From Moellerella wisconsensis ATCC 35017 (GTDB taxonomy: Bacteria > Pseudomonadota > Gammaproteobacteria > Enterobacterales > Enterobacteriaceae): a stretch of 64,000 nucleotides of DNA. The stretch lies in contig NZ_LGAA01000006.1 of the NCBI RefSeq assembly GCF_001294465.1, positions 106,950 through 170,949 on the forward strand, read 5' to 3'. Made by a program: the position numbers and the translations under genes. Positions 1-9,749 of the stretch are shown piece after piece (the first letter of the stretch is position 1; each line of letters begins with the position of its first letter). The notes below the pieces were generated by a model. It was not told the DNA's origin and made no database searches. It saw only the letters and a list, made by a program, of their open reading frames with translations.

Positions 1-607
1 TTATTATGATATGCAGATACACAACGTGTTTGAACGCACCACCAATGGCTGGTTTATTCAAATGGATAAGCAGTTGATTTCCGGCATTGAACTGCAAGCA
101 CGCTATGATAGCGGAAGAGTATTTGGTAATCTTAGCGCAAGTTATAATATAAAAACGAAAGTCTGTGATGAAGACTCTTACATTACCATGAATGTATTCA
201 ATAAACTCAAGATCCCAGATTGTATTGATGGGGGTTATCCTGGGGGATCATTACGAACGTCAATCCCGCCTAAATATTCGATTCATGCTAATCTAGGGAT
301 CCGACTTTTAGACCAAAAATTAAAATTAGGTAACCGTTTTATTTATCACAGTAAAGTGGTAAACAAAGATGAAACTTATTTGAGCACAATAATTCCAAAC
401 TTATTTAGTGGTAGCAATAATAATCCAGTACGCTGGAACCCTATTTTTACGATTGATTCATATATTAACTACCAAATTACGCCAGATACCTCTATTGAGT
501 TAGTTGGTACCAACATGCTAGATGAATATTATCTAGATCCACTCACTCGCTCGATGATGCCAGCCCCAGGGAGGACCTTTAAATTATCTATTACCAGTCA
601 GTTTTAA
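1..607 (+). CDS. TonB-dependent outer-membrane receptor, C-terminal fragment (5' end lies outside the window). It is a paralog of the 3007..6081 receptor.
   Basis: The frame is open from position 2. The translation aligns residue-for-residue with the last ~200 aa of the 1024-aa receptor at 3007..6081 (YYDMQIENVFER...GRTFKLSLSSQF). It ends in a terminal aromatic F, as TBDR barrels typically do. Confidence 0.8.
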   Translation, partial: YYDMQIHNVFERTTNGWFIQMDKQLISGIELQARYDSGRVFGNLSASYNIKTKVCDEDSYITMNVFNKLKIPDCIDGGYPGGSLRTSIPPKYSIHANLGIRLLDQKLKLGNRFIYHSKVVNKDETYLSTIIPNLFSGSNNNPVRWNPIFTIDSYINYQITPDTSIELVGTNMLDEYYLDPLTRSMMPAPGRTFKLSITSQF

Positions 608-1467: not shown

Positions 1468-2283
1468 ATGGCTATTAAAATGAATAAGGATATTACAATG
1501 AATAAGGATATTACAATGAATAGAGATATTAAAATAAATAAAGTAAATATAGCCGTCATCTTAAGCACTCTCATTACGGCCCCTTTAGCTCACGCCGCAT
1601 TAGGCTTTGATAAATCACCCGACGTAGACCTACAAACAGTTACTATTAGCGTCGGTCCTTCAGAAGTAAATACGCCTAAGCACTTCGCTCCACTTGGCTC
1701 TCCCGGCATAGGCATCTCACTTTTAGCGGACGGAAAAAGAATTGCTTTTCAAGGATTAAGTCTTATCCCGAAAGATGATAATGGTATTCATGACTCTTCA
1801 TTAGTACCTCCTCACCATAAAAATATTGGTATCTACCGCTTTGGGCAAGTAACTGACGAAGACGTTTACTTTGGTGACTGGGCGTATCAAGAAGGTGAAG
1901 AACACTACCGTAATATATACTATGCAGGGCAACAGGTCTCTACTGACCTCCCTACAGAAGGCAGTGCCACCTATACTACCCAAGGGATTAGTGCGGGTTA
2001 CAGTGAAAATGGCTTAATCACCGGTGAGCTAATCGCAGATTTTGCTAGCAATACCTTAATCGGCGACTTAACCAATGCTGAATTAGCATTAAATATCAAG
2101 GCAGAGATAGCCAGTGATCAAGGTCATTTTAAAGGGGATGCAATTATGCAACACGATGCAATCACTCATAATGGCGAAACCACAGGGCACTTTTTTAATA
2201 GCCAAGGCAGCTCCCTTGCCGGTATAGCGACTTTTGATAGTGCCCGAGAGTATGATTCAAGTTTCTCTGGGAAGAAACAATAA
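1468..2283 (+). CDS. Secreted hemophilin/HphA-like protein with a TbpB-handle-like C-terminal beta-barrel (copy 1). Probable type XI (Slam) secretion substrate. The true start is probably the ATG at 1498 or 1516.
   Basis: There is a signal peptide with an AHA/A signal peptidase I site and no lipobox Cys. The C-terminus ...GHFFNSQGSSLAGIATFDSAREYDSSFSGKKQ matches the characteristic TbpB/HpuA/fHbp/hemophilin C-terminal barrel ending (GxFYG...AGxF.A.KQ). It is a paralog of 6556..7329. Four in-frame ATGs lie inside an 18-bp tandem repeat at 1480..1533; each repeat unit carries its own AAGGA Shine-Dalgarno. Confidence 0.6.
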   Translation: MAIKMNKDITMNKDITMNRDIKINKVNIAVILSTLITAPLAHAALGFDKSPDVDLQTVTISVGPSEVNTPKHFAPLGSPGIGISLLADGKRIAFQGLSLIPKDDNGIHDSSLVPPHHKNIGIYRFGQVTDEDVYFGDWAYQEGEEHYRNIYYAGQQVSTDLPTEGSATYTTQGISAGYSENGLITGELIADFASNTLIGDLTNAELALNIKAEIASDQGHFKGDAIMQHDAITHNGETTGHFFNSQGSSLAGIATFDSAREYDSSFSGKKQ

Positions 2284-2490
2284 TCTCATTTTAAATAATC
2301 TAACTTTATATATTCAGTATCGAATTATTCGAGTAGTTTGAGTGGTTCGAATAATTCGAGTAGTTAACTGAGTTAATGGTGAAAAAAACAATTATATGGT
2401 AGTTGTACTATAATTATAATTTGACTTACTAAATTGCAAATAAATATTGAAACCAATAAGCCAATATATTCTGAGAAATGATTTATCTCA

Positions 2491-2518
2491 ACACCGGTTA
2501 TTCCTCCGGTGTTTTTTC
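2491..2518 (+). terminator. Rho-independent terminator-like hairpin (ACACCGG-ttattcct-CCGGTGT followed by TTTTTT) downstream of hemophilin-like gene 1.
   Basis: A GC-rich inverted repeat is followed immediately by a T6 run. Confidence 0.5.
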
Positions 2519-2638
2519 ATTTTATTTTTATGTTCAATAAATATCTCCTCAGCAATAATTTCAAATTCAAGAATATTTACTCTTTACACCGTACTAAAAA
2601 ATTGATTAAACTCCGCAACTTAATTAATACCTTAACTT

Positions 2639-2830
2639 ATGCATAAACCAACACACAGCCATGATGAAAAGGATTTTCAAATGCCTGAATTAAATTCAAG
2701 ATACAATTTGAATGCTATTAATTCCTTAAGCCAAATATTTACCCCTCTATTATCTACAATCGATATTCCTGCATCCTATTTTTATTTAACTGATCAAATA
2801 GGCCAATACTTTAATAAAAAAACAATATAG
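2639..2830 (+). pseudogene. Decayed remnant of a Slam/DUF560 (type XI secretion) gene.
   Basis: This 63-aa ORF contains SHDEKDFQ, which matches SHNEKDFQ at the N-terminus of the intact 454-aa Slam-like protein (7535..8899). Weaker similarity follows. It occupies the position between the hemophilin-like gene and the next receptor where an intact Slam sits in the second copy. Confidence 0.45.
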
Positions 2831-3006
2831 ACCAAATAAACCCGTACTTTATAAGGTGATATTTATAAGATCATATGTCTATTTTCTTTGTTTAGAATAA
2901 TACCATCATAAAATACCGGGATTATTTTTAAGCTCAGAATATATCATCATTATAAATATTAATTAACTTCATCACATCACTGTATAGACAGAAAGGTAAG
3001 GATACC

Positions 3007-6000
3007 ATGTCTCAACTTTGTACCCGTTATTCTAATCTGGCAATTTCGATTTCCTTATTACTCACATCAGCGCTTTATGCCTATGCTACGGCAATAGTCC
3101 AACAATCTAAAACATCTATTGGCAATATTACTATTAAAGAAATAACCACAGATGAAAACTCTGCAGCTGACCAGATTTACGATAAAGATATATCTAATAG
3201 CTACATTGGAAAAACACAGATTGAACGATTTAAAGGAACTTCCCCCGGTGATATCTTTAAAGGAACAGTCGGTGTTTTCAGCGGTGAGACCCGTAATGGG
3301 GGAGCGATTGATCCTAATATTCGAGGAGTTCAAGGGCAAGGCCGTATCCCCGTCACCATCGATGGAACAGAGCAAGCCATTACCGCTTATCGAGGCTATT
3401 ATGGCGCGAATAACCGTAATTACCTCGACCCAAATATTATTCGCAGTGTAGATATAGAAAAAGGCCCCTCATTATCACAAAATATGCGCAGCTCTATCGG
3501 TGGTGGTATCGCTATAAAAACTATTAATATCAATGATGTGGTTAAACCTGATGATAACTTTGGTATTAATGTAAAAACTGAAGTAGGCAATAATGCCATT
3601 AAACCCAGATTAGCCAAGCTGATTTATGGCGAAGATTATCGAGATACTACTCACGATTTATTCGATCGCTATACTTTTAATGATAAAGATATCAATATCC
3701 GCACCCACAATAGAAATGAACATGTTTTACACGGGATCAATAGCTATTCCTATCGTGTTGCCGTCGGTTTTCGTCAAGAATTATTTGATTTTATGCTCGC
3801 CTATAGCCATCGAACTAACGGTAACTTTGCTAGTGGTCACCGTGGTGCAAAGGGATATAGCGCCCCTTTTACTGAGCAAGATAGAGACAGTTATAGTGGA
3901 AAATTAGGACCAGATTCGGCTAAATATCATCCCGATCCTTTTTTACCCTTTGCCGCCAATGTTTATCAGCCCGGTCATGAAGTCTTAAATACCTCCAATA
4001 CTGCCGATACATTATTAATAAAACATAATTGGCGTATTAGTGATCAGCAACAATTAAACTTCACACTACGAAAAACTCAGCTCTATTTTGGCGATATAAT
4101 GCCTTCTCGACTCGCAAATTTCGCGCCCGAAAATGGCTTGCTACCACAATGGCCTGAAGGTCAAGTCGTACAGCAAGCCGGCAGTATTAATCATAAGATT
4201 CGTTCAGAAAAATATTCGGCTTTAAATCTTCACAGCAGCATCTGGTTTGATAATACGGATAGCAAAATTAATACCGCAGGTGGATTTCCTCGTTACCCGA
4301 CAGAAGTTGACTTTATGCATCAAATTCAAGGTATCAAAAATCCACATAAAGATGGCAGTTTAATTGATAGCGTAAGTAATCATACGCATAATAATCGTTG
4401 GGGAATTGACCTAAAAAATGACTTTCGCCTAACTCGTCACAACTTACTTACCCTGTCTGCGCGTTTTCAACATGAAAAAATGACTAATGTGAATCCCTAT
4501 AATAGCGGCTATGCCGTGAATACCTTTTGGCCTCCACGCGAAGGACGACGCCAAGAATATCATCTCGGGATTAATTATGCGTGGACACCACTAGAACGCC
4601 TCACTCTTAATGCCGGTATTCAATATAATGCGTATTGGTCAATCGATGATTTCATCAATAAACGCCGAGCAGCAGCAGACACGCAAGTAACTCCAAGCCC
4701 TGAGCGAATATCTTTATCCAGTAAATATCAGCGATTATTCACCCCACAAGAAAGTGAAATTTACCAACGCTATCAGCAACTACAAAAACAAAACTTATCA
4801 TTATTTGGGCAAGTACGGCAGCAGCAAGCTAAATTACGCGCTGAAAAGCGAAGCGCGACCACCGAAGAACAACATGCAATAAAAGCCATAAAACAACAGC
4901 AGCAACAAATATCACAAGAAACCAATAACCTGCAAAAACAATACAGTTATATAAATAAATCCGTGCAAGATAAAGCAACAGGACTGAACTATCACAATAT
5001 CAATTTTATTCAGCTAGTCGATGAACTTACCGGCCAACTGAATAAACAGGACAATCCTTTTTATACCGGTGAAATTGATATTAATCAGCAGCAATATGAT
5101 CCGATTAGCCAGCAGAATATCGATATTTATAAAGTGGCTGCATCAGCCCATCAAGGCAAACCTCTATTAGACTTTACCCATAAACGCGGAATTATAAACC
5201 CTAAAAAACCCCTCCCCAAACGCACTGCATGGGATTGGGCACCGGTACTTTCAGCCTCTTTAGATCTGACCGACGACTGGCGTATGTATCTGCGTTATGC
5301 AGAAACTATTCGTATGCCATCTCTGTATGAGGATACCGGTAATATAGCTGGCCAGCGCTACCATAAACCTAAAAATCAATTTAAGCCCGAACGTTCAAAA
5401 ACAGTAGAAATAGGCAGCGTCTATAATTTATCGCAGCTATTAAAAACTCAACATCATGCTGATATTAAATTAACTTATTATGATATGCAGATAGAAAATG
5501 TGTTCGAAAGAAATTATTTATCTCAAACTATTCAAATGGATAAACAACTAATATCAGGTATCGAATTACAAGCACGCTATGATAATGGATTATTTTTCAG
5601 CGATGTTAGCGCCAGTTATAATTTAAAAACAAAAGTCTGTGATGAAGATTCCTACATCGCAATTAATATGTTTAATAAATTACCTATCCCAAACTGTATT
5701 GATGGCGGTTATCCTGCTGGTTTTTTACGCACATCGACGCCCCCAAAATATTCACTTTATGCCAATATTGGTCTGCGCTTATTCGATGAAAAATTAACGC
5801 TCGGTAACCGATTTATCTATCACAGCAAAGTGATCAATAAAGATGAAGCCGATTTACAAAAACGCTTACCCAGCGCCTTTGCTGGCTTTAGTAATAATCC
5901 TCTACGCTGGAATCCCATATTTACTGTCGATGCCTATATGAGTTATCAGATAACTGCAGATACATCAGTAGAATTAGTAGGAAGTAATATGTTAGATGAA

Positions 6001-6081
6001 TATTATCTTGATCCATTAACTCGCTCGATGATGCCAGCACCGGGGCGAACGTTTAAATTATCGCTAAGCAGCCAATTCTAG
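3007..6081 (+). CDS. TonB-dependent outer-membrane receptor (1024 aa), likely a heme/hemophilin receptor (HphR/HpuB-like). It carries an unusual Q/K-rich predicted coiled-coil insertion.
   Basis: It has a signal peptide and an N-terminal plug region (GETRNGGAIDPNIRGVQGQGRIPVTIDGTEQA). The barrel is long and has the C-terminal ...GRTFKLSLSSQF with terminal F. The gene lies immediately upstream of a hemophilin-like gene, Slam and TonB. Confidence 0.85.
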   Translation: MSQLCTRYSNLAISISLLLTSALYAYATAIVQQSKTSIGNITIKEITTDENSAADQIYDKDISNSYIGKTQIERFKGTSPGDIFKGTVGVFSGETRNGGAIDPNIRGVQGQGRIPVTIDGTEQAITAYRGYYGANNRNYLDPNIIRSVDIEKGPSLSQNMRSSIGGGIAIKTININDVVKPDDNFGINVKTEVGNNAIKPRLAKLIYGEDYRDTTHDLFDRYTFNDKDINIRTHNRNEHVLHGINSYSYRVAVGFRQELFDFMLAYSHRTNGNFASGHRGAKGYSAPFTEQDRDSYSGKLGPDSAKYHPDPFLPFAANVYQPGHEVLNTSNTADTLLIKHNWRISDQQQLNFTLRKTQLYFGDIMPSRLANFAPENGLLPQWPEGQVVQQAGSINHKIRSEKYSALNLHSSIWFDNTDSKINTAGGFPRYPTEVDFMHQIQGIKNPHKDGSLIDSVSNHTHNNRWGIDLKNDFRLTRHNLLTLSARFQHEKMTNVNPYNSGYAVNTFWPPREGRRQEYHLGINYAWTPLERLTLNAGIQYNAYWSIDDFINKRRAAADTQVTPSPERISLSSKYQRLFTPQESEIYQRYQQLQKQNLSLFGQVRQQQAKLRAEKRSATTEEQHAIKAIKQQQQQISQETNNLQKQYSYINKSVQDKATGLNYHNINFIQLVDELTGQLNKQDNPFYTGEIDINQQQYDPISQQNIDIYKVAASAHQGKPLLDFTHKRGIINPKKPLPKRTAWDWAPVLSASLDLTDDWRMYLRYAETIRMPSLYEDTGNIAGQRYHKPKNQFKPERSKTVEIGSVYNLSQLLKTQHHADIKLTYYDMQIENVFERNYLSQTIQMDKQLISGIELQARYDNGLFFSDVSASYNLKTKVCDEDSYIAINMFNKLPIPNCIDGGYPAGFLRTSTPPKYSLYANIGLRLFDEKLTLGNRFIYHSKVINKDEADLQKRLPSAFAGFSNNPLRWNPIFTVDAYMSYQITADTSVELVGSNMLDEYYLDPLTRSMMPAPGRTFKLSLSSQF

Positions 6082-6555
6082 GACGATTAATTTGAGTGAT
6101 CCTTTGGCTGCCTATTAATATAGCCAAAGGATCCCCTTTATAATCCAGTATATTTGTAAGGAATTACTTTAATTTATTAATATCAAACAATAACCATAAT
6201 AATAAGATAAATTTAAAAATTTGAAAAAAACATTTATAAAACCAATTACATTATCAATTAAAAATAAAATCCAAAAAACACATTAGAATAAAATTAAAAT
6301 ACAGGTAAATAAATTAACTCATTGAATAAAAAAACAATTATTAAAATTAAAACAGATAAATTTGTTGGAAAATTAATAATATTAAAAATTATCGTTTACC
6401 CGATTAAAAAGCTAGTATATGCTCATCTTATTCCCAAACAACCTCCTGTTATATCGAGTGATTAGATTGAATGATAGGGTGTAAAACCACTAAAAATTAA
6501 TATAATCACATTTGCGCGTTTCTAATTAATATTAAATTTCAATAAGGATATTGAA

Positions 6556-7329
6556 GTGAAATTATTAAAATCTATTGTTATATTAAGTACTGTTTGTTGT
6601 GCGAATTTAGCTTATGCAGATTTAGGATTTAATAAATCAGCCGATCTAGATGACCAATTAGTATTTATTAATATCGGTCCCTCAGAAAGTTCCTCATGGG
6701 TTCATCCCGCAGCTTTAGGTTCCCCTGCGATTGGCGTCTCAGTAAAAAGTAATGGACTGAGAGTTGCCTTTAAAGGCCTGCTAAATTCACTGTTTTATAC
6801 CATGCCCACCGATAAACATGATATCTATGACAGCTCTCTTGTACGCCGCCCCGGGACTCATACTAATATTGGTGCCTATAGATTTTCTAAGCTAGATAAT
6901 GACGAAATTTACTACGGTGAATGGACATATCAATCTGAGGACGCCGACTACCGCAATGTTTATTATACCGGTAAAAATACTACGACTAATATGCCAACTG
7001 AAGGGATCGCTATCTATACCACTCAAGGGATAAGCTATAACAGTCACCAAGCGGGACCAGTTACAGGTCAGCTAACGGCAGACTTTGCCAAAAATACCTT
7101 ACATGGTGATTTAGCTAATAACGAATTATCCTTGAATATTGATGCCATTATTATTGATAGTAGCAATCAATTTTCTGGCAACACAATAATGACTCATAAT
7201 AATAATAACTATATTGGTAATTCAGAAGGTCATTTCTTTAATGATCAAGCTGATGCTTTAGCCGGTATTGCCACTTTTAAAGATAATAGCCAATATGACA
7301 CTAGCTTCGCGGGTAAAAAACAAGATTAA
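6556..7329 (+). CDS. Secreted hemophilin/HphA-like protein with a TbpB-handle-like C-terminal barrel (copy 2). It starts with GTG.
   Basis: AAGGA sits 8 nt upstream of the GTG. The signal peptide has an AYA/D cleavage site. The C-terminus ...GHFFNDQADALAGIATFKDNSQYDTSFAGKKQD matches the same family motif. Identity to 1468..2283 is roughly 40-45% by eye. Confidence 0.6.
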   Translation: MKLLKSIVILSTVCCANLAYADLGFNKSADLDDQLVFINIGPSESSSWVHPAALGSPAIGVSVKSNGLRVAFKGLLNSLFYTMPTDKHDIYDSSLVRRPGTHTNIGAYRFSKLDNDEIYYGEWTYQSEDADYRNVYYTGKNTTTNMPTEGIAIYTTQGISYNSHQAGPVTGQLTADFAKNTLHGDLANNELSLNIDAIIIDSSNQFSGNTIMTHNNNNYIGNSEGHFFNDQADALAGIATFKDNSQYDTSFAGKKQD

Positions 7330-7484
7330 GCTTTATCACTAACCAGATAATTTTTTATCTACTCGTTAAATTAATTAAATTTATATTATAACCATCTATT
7401 TAATTATTCTAGGTGATAATAATTAAAAACGTAAAATATTGGCGTATATTTATCAATATCTAAATAATAGATTAACTCACTAAA

Positions 7485-7512
7485 CGCCGAGATTTTCTCG
7501 GTGTTTTCTTTT
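7485..7512 (+). terminator. Terminator or attenuator hairpin (CGCCGAGA-ttt-TCTCGGTG followed by TTTTCTTTT) between hemophilin-like gene 2 and Slam.
   Basis: An 8-bp stem with one G-U pair is followed by a T-rich tract. It lies 23 nt upstream of the Slam start. Confidence 0.45.
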
Positions 7513-7534
7513 ATCTAACGCATAAAGTAAAAAT

Positions 7535-8899
7535 ATGACTAAATTTAATCGATTAAAGTTGTTACTATTTACATTATTCTTAAATTCATTAAACTTGGCC
7601 TATAGCCATGAAGTAATTAACAGCCATAATGAAAAGGATTTTCAAGTGTCTGTATTTCAAGCCGTCAATCAAAAAAACTGGTCTGCTGTTAATGACTATT
7701 CTTCTGAAATTGAAAGAAATATTGGAACAGAGAATAGCCTTTATTATTTTTTACAGGGTATGCTAGCCTTTGAGAGAAAAAATAATTTAGAAGCTATTAA
7801 TTTACTAAATCGAGCAATTCATTATCAACCAGATTTTATTCGTGCTAAGTTAGAACTTATTACAATATATTTAAAAAACAAAAATCAAAATTTAGCAAAA
7901 GAATTAATAAATGAATTATTATCCCATCAAAATATACCGGAGAAAATTAAAGAAAGATTACGCTATTTATTAAACACTCCGGAATATAAGCATACTAATA
8001 CCCGTAATCCGTTTTCAGCTCAAATAGCTATCGGCTATCAATATCAAGATAATATCAACCAAACAGCTGATGGCGATTCAATATGTACAGAACAACATCT
8101 TACCTCTGGGATATGTTTACAGAAATGGACGGCAACAGAACAAGATTCAGCTCAAGGAGTTTTCTTACGAACTGAACTAAGCTATCAAAAAAATATTCAT
8201 CCTGCACATGTCTGGCTCAATCAACTTTCTATTAACCATAAACAATATGTTAATGAGCCACAATATAATGAGCTATCTACCCAGATATATTCACGTTACC
8301 AATACCAGCAGCCACGCTATCAACTGCATATCGGGCCTAAAATATATTATGAAAATAGTGGTATTACTGGACACAATTATGGTGTGGGGATCCGCTGGGG
8401 CGGAATATGGCAACCGAGCCAAGCAAGCCAATGGTTACTCATTGCAGGACAAGAAATAAAGCAGCTAAGCATCCCGAATAATCCATATGCTAACGGCTCA
8501 CATTTTTACCATCAGCTAATTATTACTCGGCCGCTGTTCTTTGGTGACTTTTTCCAACTGACTGAGTTTTCGCATCACTATCATCGAGATACCAGTAAGG
8601 ATCATCATCAAATTCAATTTATTACCGGCGTTGACTGGCAATCGATTCCTTACGTTGAACCTAATATTTCTGTCAGTGGGTATCAGCAAAAGTTCCAAAA
8701 CTTCAATACTATCTTACAAGCTAAGCGACGAGATCGCGGAGTTGGAGTCCACGTAAAGATTAAAACTAAACACTGGCAACTGGCGGGTTTTACACCGACA
8801 TTAGCATTTTCACATCATTACATAAAAAGTAATGTTGATTGGCTGTATAGCCATCGGCGGAATCATGTTCAGCTATTTTTTGAACGTCGATTTCAATAA
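7535..8899 (+). CDS. Slam-like (DUF560) outer-membrane protein, the type XI secretion system translocator.
   Basis: It has a signal peptide, then roughly 150 aa of TPR-like helical repeats, then a beta-rich region that starts IAIGYQYQDNINQ (the GY-x-x-N-x-N pattern typical of DUF560 barrel starts) with alternating aromatic residues to the C-terminus. The size of 454 aa fits. It is positioned between a putative substrate and TonB. Confidence 0.6.
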   Translation: MTKFNRLKLLLFTLFLNSLNLAYSHEVINSHNEKDFQVSVFQAVNQKNWSAVNDYSSEIERNIGTENSLYYFLQGMLAFERKNNLEAINLLNRAIHYQPDFIRAKLELITIYLKNKNQNLAKELINELLSHQNIPEKIKERLRYLLNTPEYKHTNTRNPFSAQIAIGYQYQDNINQTADGDSICTEQHLTSGICLQKWTATEQDSAQGVFLRTELSYQKNIHPAHVWLNQLSINHKQYVNEPQYNELSTQIYSRYQYQQPRYQLHIGPKIYYENSGITGHNYGVGIRWGGIWQPSQASQWLLIAGQEIKQLSIPNNPYANGSHFYHQLIITRPLFFGDFFQLTEFSHHYHRDTSKDHHQIQFITGVDWQSIPYVEPNISVSGYQQKFQNFNTILQAKRRDRGVGVHVKIKTKHWQLAGFTPTLAFSHHYIKSNVDWLYSHRRNHVQLFFERRFQ

Positions 8900-8969
8900 T
8901 TTATTCGGCCATGCTGATTAAACCCGTAAGAGTACTATACCGAAGGGTTCTATATCGAAGGATACTACA

Positions 8970-9749
8970 TTGAAAAATACTATATTGACGAATACTGACT
9001 TGAAAAAGGCTATGCTGCAATTTTGCACGCATCATTATATTAGCTCATCCTTTTTTTCGCCAAAATTACTGCTTTGGGGGCTACTTGCTATCACTCTGCA
9101 TATCACTATTTTTGGTGTTTTCTTCATTACCCCAACATCCAAGCGGATCGATTCCCCGATGCAACAAGGCATACAATCACCTATCACCTCTATCCTGTTG
9201 CTCGCACAATCGTTAGTGCCGATAGAAAAGGAGGTCACAGATATAGACATCTCTATTCCACTGTCTCCAGTAAATGGAACCTATAACTTCTCGCCCCAAA
9301 AAGCCGTGATAAAAAAGAAACTCGATGATAAAAAGAAACCCATAAAACAACCCAAAAAAATGACCCCAAAAAAGGATAGTAAACAACAACTGGCCGGTAG
9401 CAATGAAATCAGTACTATTAGCGGAAATACCATCCCGGGTAAAGAGAATATTCAGGGGCATCAAGGTTCAACAGCCAACAGCTATATTTCAAAATTAAAA
9501 AGTGAAATTGAGAAACATAAGCAATATCCAAGGAAAGCCAGAAGATTACGTTATCAAGGTAAGGTGATGATCGAGATGACGGTCGCTAATAATGGATCAT
9601 TATCGAATATAAACGTGGCTAAATCATCAGGCTATGAACTACTCGATAAAGCCGCTATCGATGCCGTCTATAAATATCGCTCGATTGGTGATAAACCTGC
9701 AGAGGTTAAAGATATCCTAAGCTTTAATATGGTATTTTCTTTAGATTGA
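8970..9749 (+). CDS. TonB-family energy transducer. The start may be the internal Met at about 9012.
   Basis: It has one N-terminal transmembrane helix and a Pro/Lys-rich linker (KKKLDDKKKPIKQPKKMTPKK). The C-terminal TonB_C domain is ...RYQGKVMIEMTVANNGSLSNINVAKSSGYELLDKAAIDAVYKYR. Confidence 0.75.
   Translation: MKNTILTNTDLKKAMLQFCTHHYISSSFFSPKLLLWGLLAITLHITIFGVFFITPTSKRIDSPMQQGIQSPITSILLLAQSLVPIEKEVTDIDISIPLSPVNGTYNFSPQKAVIKKKLDDKKKPIKQPKKMTPKKDSKQQLAGSNEISTISGNTIPGKENIQGHQGSTANSYISKLKSEIEKHKQYPRKARRLRYQGKVMIEMTVANNGSLSNINVAKSSGYELLDKAAIDAVYKYRSIGDKPAEVKDILSFNMVFSLD

Follow-up and report, generated by a model that had tools for sequence, protein, structure and literature searches.

The spacer between the hemophilin gene hphA-d and the receptor gene TBDR2 of Moellerella wisconsensis contains what is, judged by its sequence, the dead front end of a Slam gene (stub 2, approximately 2543–2705 within the spacer 2283–3006), left by an ordinary kind of gene loss. 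All positions refer to the window, the 64 kb stretch of DNA that was analysed. The surrounding locus was probably multiplied and later pruned to one working Slam, the survivor exporting all five hemophores. A unit consisting of hphA, Slam, TBDR and TonB would have been multiplied, redundant Slam copies and one receptor would then have been lost, and the surviving Slam would export all five cargos by recognising their C-terminal eight-stranded barrels, the last strands of which are nearly invariant among the paralogs.

The heme-uptake locus adjoins mnmE/yidC near the replication origin. In the complete locus, five hemophilin paralogs and two TonB-dependent receptors are found together with one TonB, one intact Slam and two Slam stubs, in the order hphA-a, hphA-b, hphA-c, Slam stub 1, TBDR1, hphA-d, Slam stub 2, TBDR2, hphA-e, intact Slam and TonB. 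This amounts to three units that have diverged from one another and two extra hphA genes, and synonymous divergence between the paralog units is saturated (at least 2). The 3' end of TBDR1 and the C-terminus of TBDR2 have 75% amino acid identity. The earlier note described two copies, a description that did not hold because stub 1 and three more hemophilin genes are located just upstream of the window. The same layout was present in all 15 copies of the region examined from M. wisconsensis, which represent 9 haplotypes. Related Moellerella genomes contain a single hphA-Slam-TBDR-TonB unit, and in two related lineages (L003, a Moellerella MAG, and L012) an intact Slam lies between hphA and TBDR, at the position occupied by stub 2 in M. 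wisconsensis. Searches of proteins, genomes and metagenomes gave only these single-unit relatives and no full Slam at the hphA-d/TBDR2 site. The features of the region are given in Table 1.

Table 1. Features of the hemophilin locus in the window and the evidence for each.
Feature	Position	Strand	Evidence and remarks
TBDR1, 3' end	1..607	+	Cut by the window start; full gene 1026 aa (L001 6060-9140), Plug and barrel domains
hphA-d, intact hemophilin-family hemophore gene	1468..2283	+	HphA_N 2e-15, HphA_C 1.3e-15 (Pfam)
Long hairpin in the hphA-d 3' UTR	2312..2373	+	Two 19-nt repeats TCGAATWATTCGAGTAGTT, unique in the window; region folds with z = -3.0
Intrinsic terminator after hphA-d	2490..2520	+	Positional counterpart at 7482-7512 after hphA-e
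Slam (T11SS outer-membrane protein) 5' pseudogene fragment	2543..2705	+	Lost start, degenerate signal-peptide region, ~17 recognisable codons
Promoter-like element TTTACA-N18-TAAACT within stub 2	2583..2612	+	Present in all five Slam 5' copies examined
63-aa ORF of the earlier note	2639..2830	+	Gene callers start at 2639 or 2681
Best-conserved 37-nt core ACAGCCATGATGAAAAGGATTTTCAAATGCCTGAATT	2655..2691	+	Encodes SHDEKDFQMPEL, contains AAGGA-7 nt-ATG; 25/26 bases identical to the intact gene
Fur-box-like site	2660-2678		Weak, 13/19 to GATAATGATAATCATTATC in stub 2; downstream of the promoter-like element
Unalignable spacer after loss of ~1.2 kb of Slam body	2706..2941		236 nt
Conserved TBDR2 leader and Shine-Dalgarno site AAAGGTAAGGATACC	2942..3006	+	Homologous to the TBDR1 upstream sequence and the MAG Slam-TBDR junction
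TBDR2, TonB-dependent receptor, heme/hemoglobin type	3007..6081	+	1024 aa; Plug and barrel; TIGR01785 1.7e-62, below family cutoff
hphA-e, intact hemophilin-family hemophore gene	6556..7329	+	GTG start after AAGGA; matches solved hemophilins 8gmm and 8gm3 at ~1e-28
Sole intact Slam/T11SS outer-membrane protein gene of the locus	7535..8899	+	454 aa; PF04575 8.6e-26, signal peptide
Locus-specific TonB homolog	8970..9749	+	TonB_C 2.7e-16

Alignment of the spacer with the Slam gene at the nucleotide level revealed real homology to the 5' end of the intact gene. Local alignment of 2617–2691 with 7582–7656 gave 56 identical bases of 76 (blastn E value 3e-9), and the Smith-Waterman score of 32 compared with 18.0 ± 2.2, maximum 28, for 500 dinucleotide shuffles. 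A 26-nt core (ACAGCCATRATGAAAAGGATTTTCAA) was found only at 2655 and 7620 in the window, where no occurrence is expected by chance. Both copies show the same colinear order of hemophilin stop, terminator and Slam 5' end. The decayed Slam that the earlier note placed between hphA-d and TBDR2 is thus confirmed by nucleotide homology, colinearity and synteny, and the peptide match between SHDEKDFQ of the stub and SHNEKDFQ of the intact gene was correct. The ancestral Slam start codon has become ATC (2543–2545), and the signal-peptide region contains in-frame stops and an 18-nt insertion. Only Slam residues 11–56 were matched in this region by tblastn, the divergence between stub 2 and the intact Slam is approximately K = 0.32, and the DUF560 (SlipAM) β-barrel is absent. 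Compared with the Slam family stub 2 is the 5' end of such a gene, with approximately 45 codons' worth kept, and it cannot encode a secretor. No match for 2706–2941 was obtained in the Slam body, the window, L001, L003 or L012, and the spacer at 2692–2941 had the highest polymorphism, with 22 variable sites in 250 nt.

The 63-aa open reading frame that had been taken for the Slam remnant is only partly so. Its first 17 or so codons (to ...DEKDFQMPEL) are derived from Slam, while its tail shows no similarity to Slam (shuffle p=0.52) and the fragment itself begins upstream of it, at approximately 2543. The frame has no Pfam or NCBIfam match, and the 9 nonsynonymous and 5 synonymous changes between lineages give no clear sign of coding constraint. 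It was consequently rejected as a coding gene, and most likely is not one. It is highly improbable that the similarity arose by chance or that the frame encodes a genuine small protein with no relation to Slam, despite the shortness of the peptide match and a frame that stays open in all strains behind AAGGA-N7-ATG; a chance match is incompatible with the shuffle tests and with the unique core, the colinearity and synteny also argue against it, and the counterpart frame in stub 1 shares only MP.L.

Two parts of stub 2 are better conserved than their surroundings. The promoter-like element agrees with 9 of the 12 consensus positions of the sigma-70 -35 and -10 hexamers, and both hexamers recur in stub 1 and in the intact Slam, the -10 sequence being TACAAT in two related Slams. 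The two stubs preserve all 12 hexamer positions, whereas the sequence separating the hexamers has diverged. Across 15 sequences the promoter-like element and the 37-nt core contained 0 polymorphic sites in 67, compared with 34 in 419 for the rest of 2521–3006 (p=0.0085), a test whose signal comes in essence from a single deep split separating two lineages. Conservation of the element and the core is mildly unexpected given the synonymous saturation between the paralog units. The core also resembles a Fur box, with 14 of 19 positions in the intact gene and approximately 10 of 19 in stub 1 by our own count; with agreement this weak, including in stub 2, a Fur-box reading of the core was rejected.

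One account of these data is that stub 2 is a purely neutral relic of a Slam copy that was functional until fairly recently, the conserved pieces reflecting a highly conserved N-terminal protein motif and chance. This has slightly less than an even chance of being correct. It is consistent with a spacer divergence between lineages of 4.3%, close to the 3.5–8.4% synonymous divergence of the flanking genes, with the conservation of INSHNEKDF, one of the protein segments that vary least between Moellerella Slams, with the 3 variable sites in the 42 nt between the element and the core, and with the frequency of promoter-like matches, which in this AT-rich DNA are no commoner than in shuffled sequence. 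The polymorphism test and the retention of all 12 hexamer positions beside diverged spacers argue against it. So do the derived bases shared by the two stubs, which have ATGCCTG where the window and MAG Slams have GTGTCTG and a third has GTGACTG, and the shared position at which both stubs cease to resemble the intact gene. Shared derived bases and a common point of loss suggest that the truncation dates back to the saturated split between TBDR1 and TBDR2.

Tentatively, stub 2 may be something other than purely neutral debris, with the promoter-like element and the 37-nt core forming a candidate promoter or leader of TBDR2. Pseudogene fragments kept as regulatory DNA likewise show conserved islands in a decayed gene between a terminator and the next gene, and the case for regulatory reuse in M. 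wisconsensis is built on conservation between paralogs and one polymorphism test. Should the stub prove to act as a promoter or leader, it would neatly illustrate such regulatory reuse of pseudogene DNA. TBDR2 sits behind the strong hphA-d terminator. A broader proposal, which we regard as doubtful, is that a nucleotide-level cis-element at the 5' end of Slam, acting as promoter or as ribosome-loading leader, has preserved both stubs by driving or stabilising receptor expression while a single secretor serves a diversifying five-member array. Both dead Slam copies would then have been trimmed to the same stub and held under purifying selection since. Within the array the export barrels would stay compatible, as in the near-identical barrels of paralogs a, b and c, and the ligand-binding halves would diversify, two members having lost a heme-ligand histidine.

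The common point at which similarity to Slam ends could also arise if stub 2 had never been a full gene. Unequal crossing-over between the older stub, which lies upstream of TBDR1, and the 5' end of the intact Slam would have produced it, duplicating TBDR and hphA in one step. The core of stub 2 resembles the intact gene in its 5' part (4 sites) and stub 1 in its 3' part (3 sites), a pattern that is not significant (approximately 0.06 by our own count) and is explained equally well by changes private to stub 1. Stub 1 retains the Slam 3' end and traces of the TPR region (p=0.03), as a decayed full gene would, and stub 2 retains neither. The DNA downstream of the two stubs lacks the similarity that would prove common descent, and we consider the crossing-over unlikely. 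Under the preferred account, multiplication followed by pruning, the stub would be a dated footprint of the growth and subsequent trimming of a heme-piracy locus, in which cargo and receptor genes multiplied and diverged and the secretor was cut to one copy.

The remaining Slam gene appears complete. Positions 4–288 of the 288 in the PF04575 profile are covered, corresponding to the full DUF560 barrel, a TPR_Slam region spans residues 36–123 with a score below the family cutoff, and the signal peptide (MTKFNRLKLLLFTLFLNSLNLAYS) can be read directly. An N-terminal TPR region followed by a full DUF560 barrel is likewise found in Neisseria Slam1, A. baumannii HsmA and Xenorhabdus HrpB (PF04575, DUF560). 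The Moellerella gene adjoins a hemophilin cargo, a TonB-dependent receptor and TonB; unlike other Slam/T11SS members it belongs to a lineage that stands apart in sequence. Its identity to the MAG Slam is 51%, large-database searches returned this lineage from Moellerella only, and a word-filtered search of 5.8 billion proteins gave no relatives outside the genus.

No second Slam was found in the window. The count of one covers the 64 kb window and the locus as described here, and for the whole genome it is taken from a psi-BLAST survey of 2016–2017 that lists 'Slams found = 1' for M. wisconsensis (PMC5449769, supplementary file 2). The supplements of two T11SS surveys (PMC8406197 and PMC12282271) do not mention Moellerella. 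Since one Slam is listed for the species, it can fairly be inferred that the hemophores share one secretor. The earlier note proposed one Slam for two cargos and saw in this a relaxation of one-to-one pairing; the locus instead has five hemophilin paralogs and two receptors for its one Slam, and the service of several cargos by one Slam is already established. Neisseria Slam1 serves TbpB, LbpB and fHbp and a P. multocida cluster holds several lipoproteins (PMC5449769), so that no newly relaxed pairing is shown and the understanding of Slam biology is unchanged. The C-terminal barrel is reported to set T11SS specificity, and cross-secretion between non-cognate hemophilins and T11SS proteins is weak, the pairs being specific (10.1101/2023.03.15.532718). 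Against this published view of specific pairs the locus would offer a natural test case of the cargo divergence that a single Slam/T11SS tolerates. The idea that the last barrel strands form the Slam signal was not found in PMC9090332 and was set aside.

The cargo genes retain the features expected for Slam-dependent secretion. The HphA_N handle and the HphA_C eight-stranded barrel were above cutoffs in hphA-d and hphA-e, and the NF041636 signature of the Slam-dependent C-terminal barrel gave 111.5 bits for hphA-d and 121 for hphA-e (cutoff 80). Solved hemophilins matched the two at 1e-28 to 1e-19. The full-length domain matches and the AAGGA sites upstream bear out the description of both genes as intact with good Shine-Dalgarno sequences. 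Translation of hphA-d probably starts at 1498 or 1516, within an 18-nt tandem repeat, and its signal peptide ends AHA|A and lacks a lipobox. Signal peptides of this type are shared with Hpl of H. haemolyticus, HphA-HsmA of A. baumannii and HrpC-HrpB of X. nematophila, and as in the known hemophilin loci the Moellerella genes cluster with Slam, receptor and TonB. M. wisconsensis differs in that one locus combines five paralogs, two Slam stubs and a single Slam, an array for which a literature search found no earlier description.

Alignment of the histidine columns with the histidines of 8gmm, 8gm3 and 8glo showed that the motif-3 axial histidine of the β5-β6 loop and the histidine of the β2-β3 loop are kept in hphA-c, hphA-d and hphA-e. 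The motif-3 histidine is missing from paralog a, and neither histidine is present in paralog b. Paralogs a, b and c have near-identical C-terminal halves, and their N-terminal halves have diverged; the C-terminal barrels of the paralogs are otherwise 54–63% identical. The special divergence of the N-terminal halves that had been proposed for the two genes in the window was not observed, with hphA-d and hphA-e having 53% amino acid identity in the N-terminal half and 54% in the C-terminal half. As the halves are equally diverged and both heme histidines are kept, there is no specific pointer to different ligands for these two proteins. A C-terminal identity of only 54% between hphA-d and hphA-e also calls for caution regarding export of all five cargos by one Slam.

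The pN/pS ratios were 0.39 for hphA-d and 0.31 for TBDR1, compared with 0.06 for hphA-e and 0.11 for TBDR2 (pooled Fisher p=0.001), which shows, as far as such ratios reflect selection, weaker purifying selection on hphA-d than on hphA-e. The relaxed constraint on hphA-d and TBDR1 could represent reduced function. A cargo that the remaining Slam serves inefficiently might in this way drift, together with TBDR1, towards loss or a different role, as the specificity of T11SS/cargo pairs (10.1101/2023.03.15.532718) would allow, and the splitting of TBDR2 in one strain (L007) indicates that parts of the locus can be lost. We judge such drift to be improbable: hphA-d is a full-length open reading frame in every strain seen and has both heme histidines and the complete barrel signature, and a raised pN/pS is equally expected from diversifying selection on an exposed protein.

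A terminator was found behind every hphA gene, with equivalents of the hphA-d terminator after hphA-c (L001 5010–5037) and after the MAG hphA (L003 9900–9924). Searches for structured RNAs over 2319–2520 gave sub-threshold matches to GcvB (20 bits, cutoff 42) and sroD (21 bits, cutoff 50), which are driven by the hairpin and terminator and were rejected. A 12-nt inverted repeat that brackets the stub (2464–2475 and 2933–2944) was also set aside, being approximately at chance level in AT-rich DNA by our own estimate. The 3' region of hphA-d at 2284–2520, which contains the hairpin and terminator, varied at 5 sites in 237 nt across strains, compared with approximately 8% of sites further downstream.

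The genes of the first 9.7 kb were assigned by ORF listing and domain searches (table below), and the spacer between the hemophilin gene hphA-d and the TonB-dependent receptor gene TBDR2 was compared with the intact gene for Slam, the outer-membrane protein of type 11 secretion (T11SS). The top local alignment paired 2617-2691 with 7582-7656 at 56 of 76 identical bases, giving a Smith-Waterman score of 32 against 18.0 +/- 2.2 (maximum 28) for 500 dinucleotide shuffles. A 26-nt core occurs in the whole window only at 2655 and 7620, where none would be expected by chance. Both copies are colinear, running from the hemophilin stop through an intrinsic terminator (2490-2520 and 7482-7512) to the Slam 5' end. 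As the earlier note had proposed, the spacer is homologous to Slam at the nucleotide level, and the similarity exceeds the eight-residue peptide match; stub 2 (2543-2705) is a genuine Slam pseudogene fragment within an expanded hemophilin locus.

Features of the hemophilin locus (window coordinates unless marked L001, the source contig)
Feature	Position	Remarks
Stub 1, Slam pseudogene	L001 5402-6000	between hphA-c and TBDR1
TBDR1	1-607	3' end of TonB-dependent receptor gene
hphA-d	1468-2283	hemophilin family
Spacer hphA-d/TBDR2		feature under study, 724 nt
TBDR2	3007-6081	second receptor
hphA-e	6556-7329	second hemophilin gene of the window
Slam/DUF560 gene	7535-8899	intact; PF04575 8.6e-26, whole profile covered
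TonB homolog	8970-9749	
mnmE and yidC	after TonB homolog	opposite strand

The 63-aa ORF, which had been taken for the Slam remnant, derives from Slam in its first ~17 codons; the rest of the ORF does not, its tail having neither similarity to Slam (p=0.52) nor a protein-family match in family searches. Alignment with the three intact Moellerella Slam genes places the ancestral start codon at 2543-2545, which is today ATC, and the signal-peptide region of stub 2 is disrupted by in-frame stops and by an insertion of 18 nt. Some 1.2 kb of the Slam gene is missing. The interval 2706-2941 matched nothing in searches of the window, its source contig and the related Moellerella lineages L003 and L012, while the last 65 nt of the spacer form a conserved receptor-gene leader with a Shine-Dalgarno site.

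The contig, on which L001 positions equal window coordinates plus 8533, carries three extra hemophilin genes upstream of the window, hphA-a, hphA-b and hphA-c, followed by stub 1, so that the whole locus comprises five hemophores, two receptors, two stubs, one Slam and one TonB. Stub 1 retains the ATG start codon, a degenerate signal peptide broken by stops, the motif of stub 2 (SHTEKDFKMPVL; also given as INSHTEKDFKMPVL) and, immediately upstream of TBDR1, the final ~25 Slam codons; its 105-aa ORF marginally resembles the TPR region of Slam (p=0.03). L003 and L012, from one metagenome, contain a single hphA-Slam-TBDR unit, and both stubs thus occupy the exact site expected for Slam. L003 has TonB after the receptor, and its unit lies in the chromosomal neighbourhood seen in M. 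wisconsensis (fdhD ... mnmE-yidC). An identical layout was found in eleven more M. wisconsensis genomes or contigs spanning the locus, and the spacer length stayed at 723-724 nt throughout the 15 copies compared; this Slam loss is fixed in M. wisconsensis. The stretch L001 5112-5400, which separates the hphA-c terminator from stub 1, is hypervariable across strains (~65-80 variable columns in ~290 nt) and metagenomic contigs frequently end just upstream of it; the upstream hemophilin array may vary from strain to strain. In RefSeq/PGAP records the intact Slam is 417 aa long and starts at GTG codon 38 (7535-7648), the same point at which both stubs cease to resemble Slam. This start removes a good signal peptide, which an outer-membrane protein requires, and 454 aa is the plausible length.

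The paralogous units diverged long ago: TBDR1 and TBDR2 are saturated at synonymous sites (dS about 2.3), as are hphA-d and hphA-e, with values that match in size the divergence from the single-copy relative. Non-coding DNA of this age should be unrecognisable, and no shared sequence was found on comparing the regions downstream of the two stubs. Stub 2 nonetheless differs from the intact Slam by only K ~0.32 over 76 nt, with one base difference in the 26-nt core. Both stubs share the derived bases ATGCCTG (GTGTCTG in the window and L003 Slams, GTGACTG in that of L012), and their similarity to Slam ends at an identical point. Two routes to stub 2 fit the data. The hphA-Slam-TBDR unit may have been triplicated and a full Slam copy then have decayed in place, which would additionally need the loss of a third receptor. 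Alternatively, stub 2 could have been born as a fragment, through unequal crossing-over between the 5' end of the intact Slam and the older stub, stub 1, that would duplicate TBDR-hphA in a single step; the core site pattern is compatible with such an event but is not significant. Genome and metagenome searches returned no intermediate genome.

The apparent constraint on stub 2 is the sole mildly surprising element of the finding. All hemophilin genes, the one in the single-copy relative included, end in a strong terminator, so that expression of the receptor behind it requires either read-through or a separate promoter. This makes attractive the hypothesis, held to be less likely than not, that stub 2 has been reused as promoter or leader of the receptor gene. 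A promoter-like TTTACA-N16-18-TAAACT is present in both stubs, with 12 of 12 hexamer positions kept and the inter-hexamer spacer diverged, and intact Slam genes carry the same element. Synonymous codons of intact Slams have an identity of 0.79 in the first 50 codons against 0.52 elsewhere (p about 0.004 in one Slam pair, 0.08 in the other). Within the species, this element (2583-2612) and the core (2655-2691) contain 0/67 variable sites against 34/419 in the remainder of 2521-3006 (Fisher p=0.0085). This contrast depends on one deep lineage split, a limitation that counts against a functional reading, as do the near-synonymous rate of the whole spacer (4.3% vs 3.5-8.4%) and the lack of enrichment of promoter-like matches in this AT-rich DNA.

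No further Slam or hemophilin genes were found in the 64 kb window, searches of 5.8 billion proteins returned this as the sole Moellerella Slam lineage, and one Slam is listed for M. wisconsensis by Hooda et al. 2017 ('Slams found: 1', supplementary table, PMC5449769). hphA-d and hphA-e both score over the cutoff for the Slam-dependent barrel signature, and the final barrel strands are nearly invariant across all five paralogs; in chimera experiments T11SS specificity was set by the C-terminal barrel (10.1101/2023.03.15.532718). With a single Slam found and cargos bearing export features, it is plausible that all of them use it. One secretor for several cargos is established biology elsewhere rather than new: Neisseria Slam1 handles TbpB and LbpB, both encoded far from it (PMC5449769), and the P. 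multocida Slam cluster includes several lipoproteins. However, the hphA-d and hphA-e barrels are only 54% identical, non-cognate secretion was weak in published assays (10.1101/2023.03.15.532718), and pN/pS between the two main lineages is higher in hphA-d (0.39) and TBDR1 (0.31) than in hphA-e (0.06) and TBDR2 (0.11; pooled Fisher p=0.001), a sign that selection on hphA-d and TBDR1 is either relaxed or diversifying.

Special divergence of the N-terminal halves, suggested earlier, was not borne out, hphA-d and hphA-e sharing 53% N-terminal and 54% C-terminal amino acid identity. Both retain the motif-3 axial histidine and a second histidine in the beta2-beta3 loop, aligned with those of solved hemophilins, so that with both heme histidines kept and the halves equally diverged there is no sign of the proposed change of ligand. 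The proposed pattern exists instead in the tandem hphA-a, hphA-b and hphA-c (L001 2038-4940), whose C-terminal halves are 89-95% and N-terminal halves 60-73% identical in nucleotides, suggesting gene conversion or a mosaic origin; hphA-a lacks the motif-3 histidine and hphA-b both heme-ligand histidines.

The hphA-d 3' UTR (2284-2520) contains a terminator and a long hairpin (2312-2373) formed by two 19-nt repeats that occur nowhere else in the window. Strains vary at unusually few of its positions (5 of 237 nt), only one change separates the two main lineages (Poisson p about 1e-4), and its only Rfam matches, GcvB and sroD, were sub-threshold; candidate roles are a 3' stabilising structure and a small RNA derived from the 3' UTR. 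At the hphA-d 5' end (1473-1541), an 18-nt tandem repeat of 3.8 copies yields three in-frame ATGs, the later ones each preceded by AAGGA from the prior unit, and annotated lengths consequently vary from 261 to 271 aa. In one strain (GCA_037198855.1, positions 6452-9526 of its contig) gene calling split TBDR2 into two ORFs (501 and 521 aa), probably through a frameshift or nonsense mutation. TBDR2 residues about 560-650 (window about 4690-4960) form a long insertion rich in glutamine and lysine (…QQLQKQNLSLFGQVRQQQAKLRAEKRS…KQQQQQISQETNNLQKQ…), the least conserved part of the three receptors at 20-29% identity (alignment columns 600-700).
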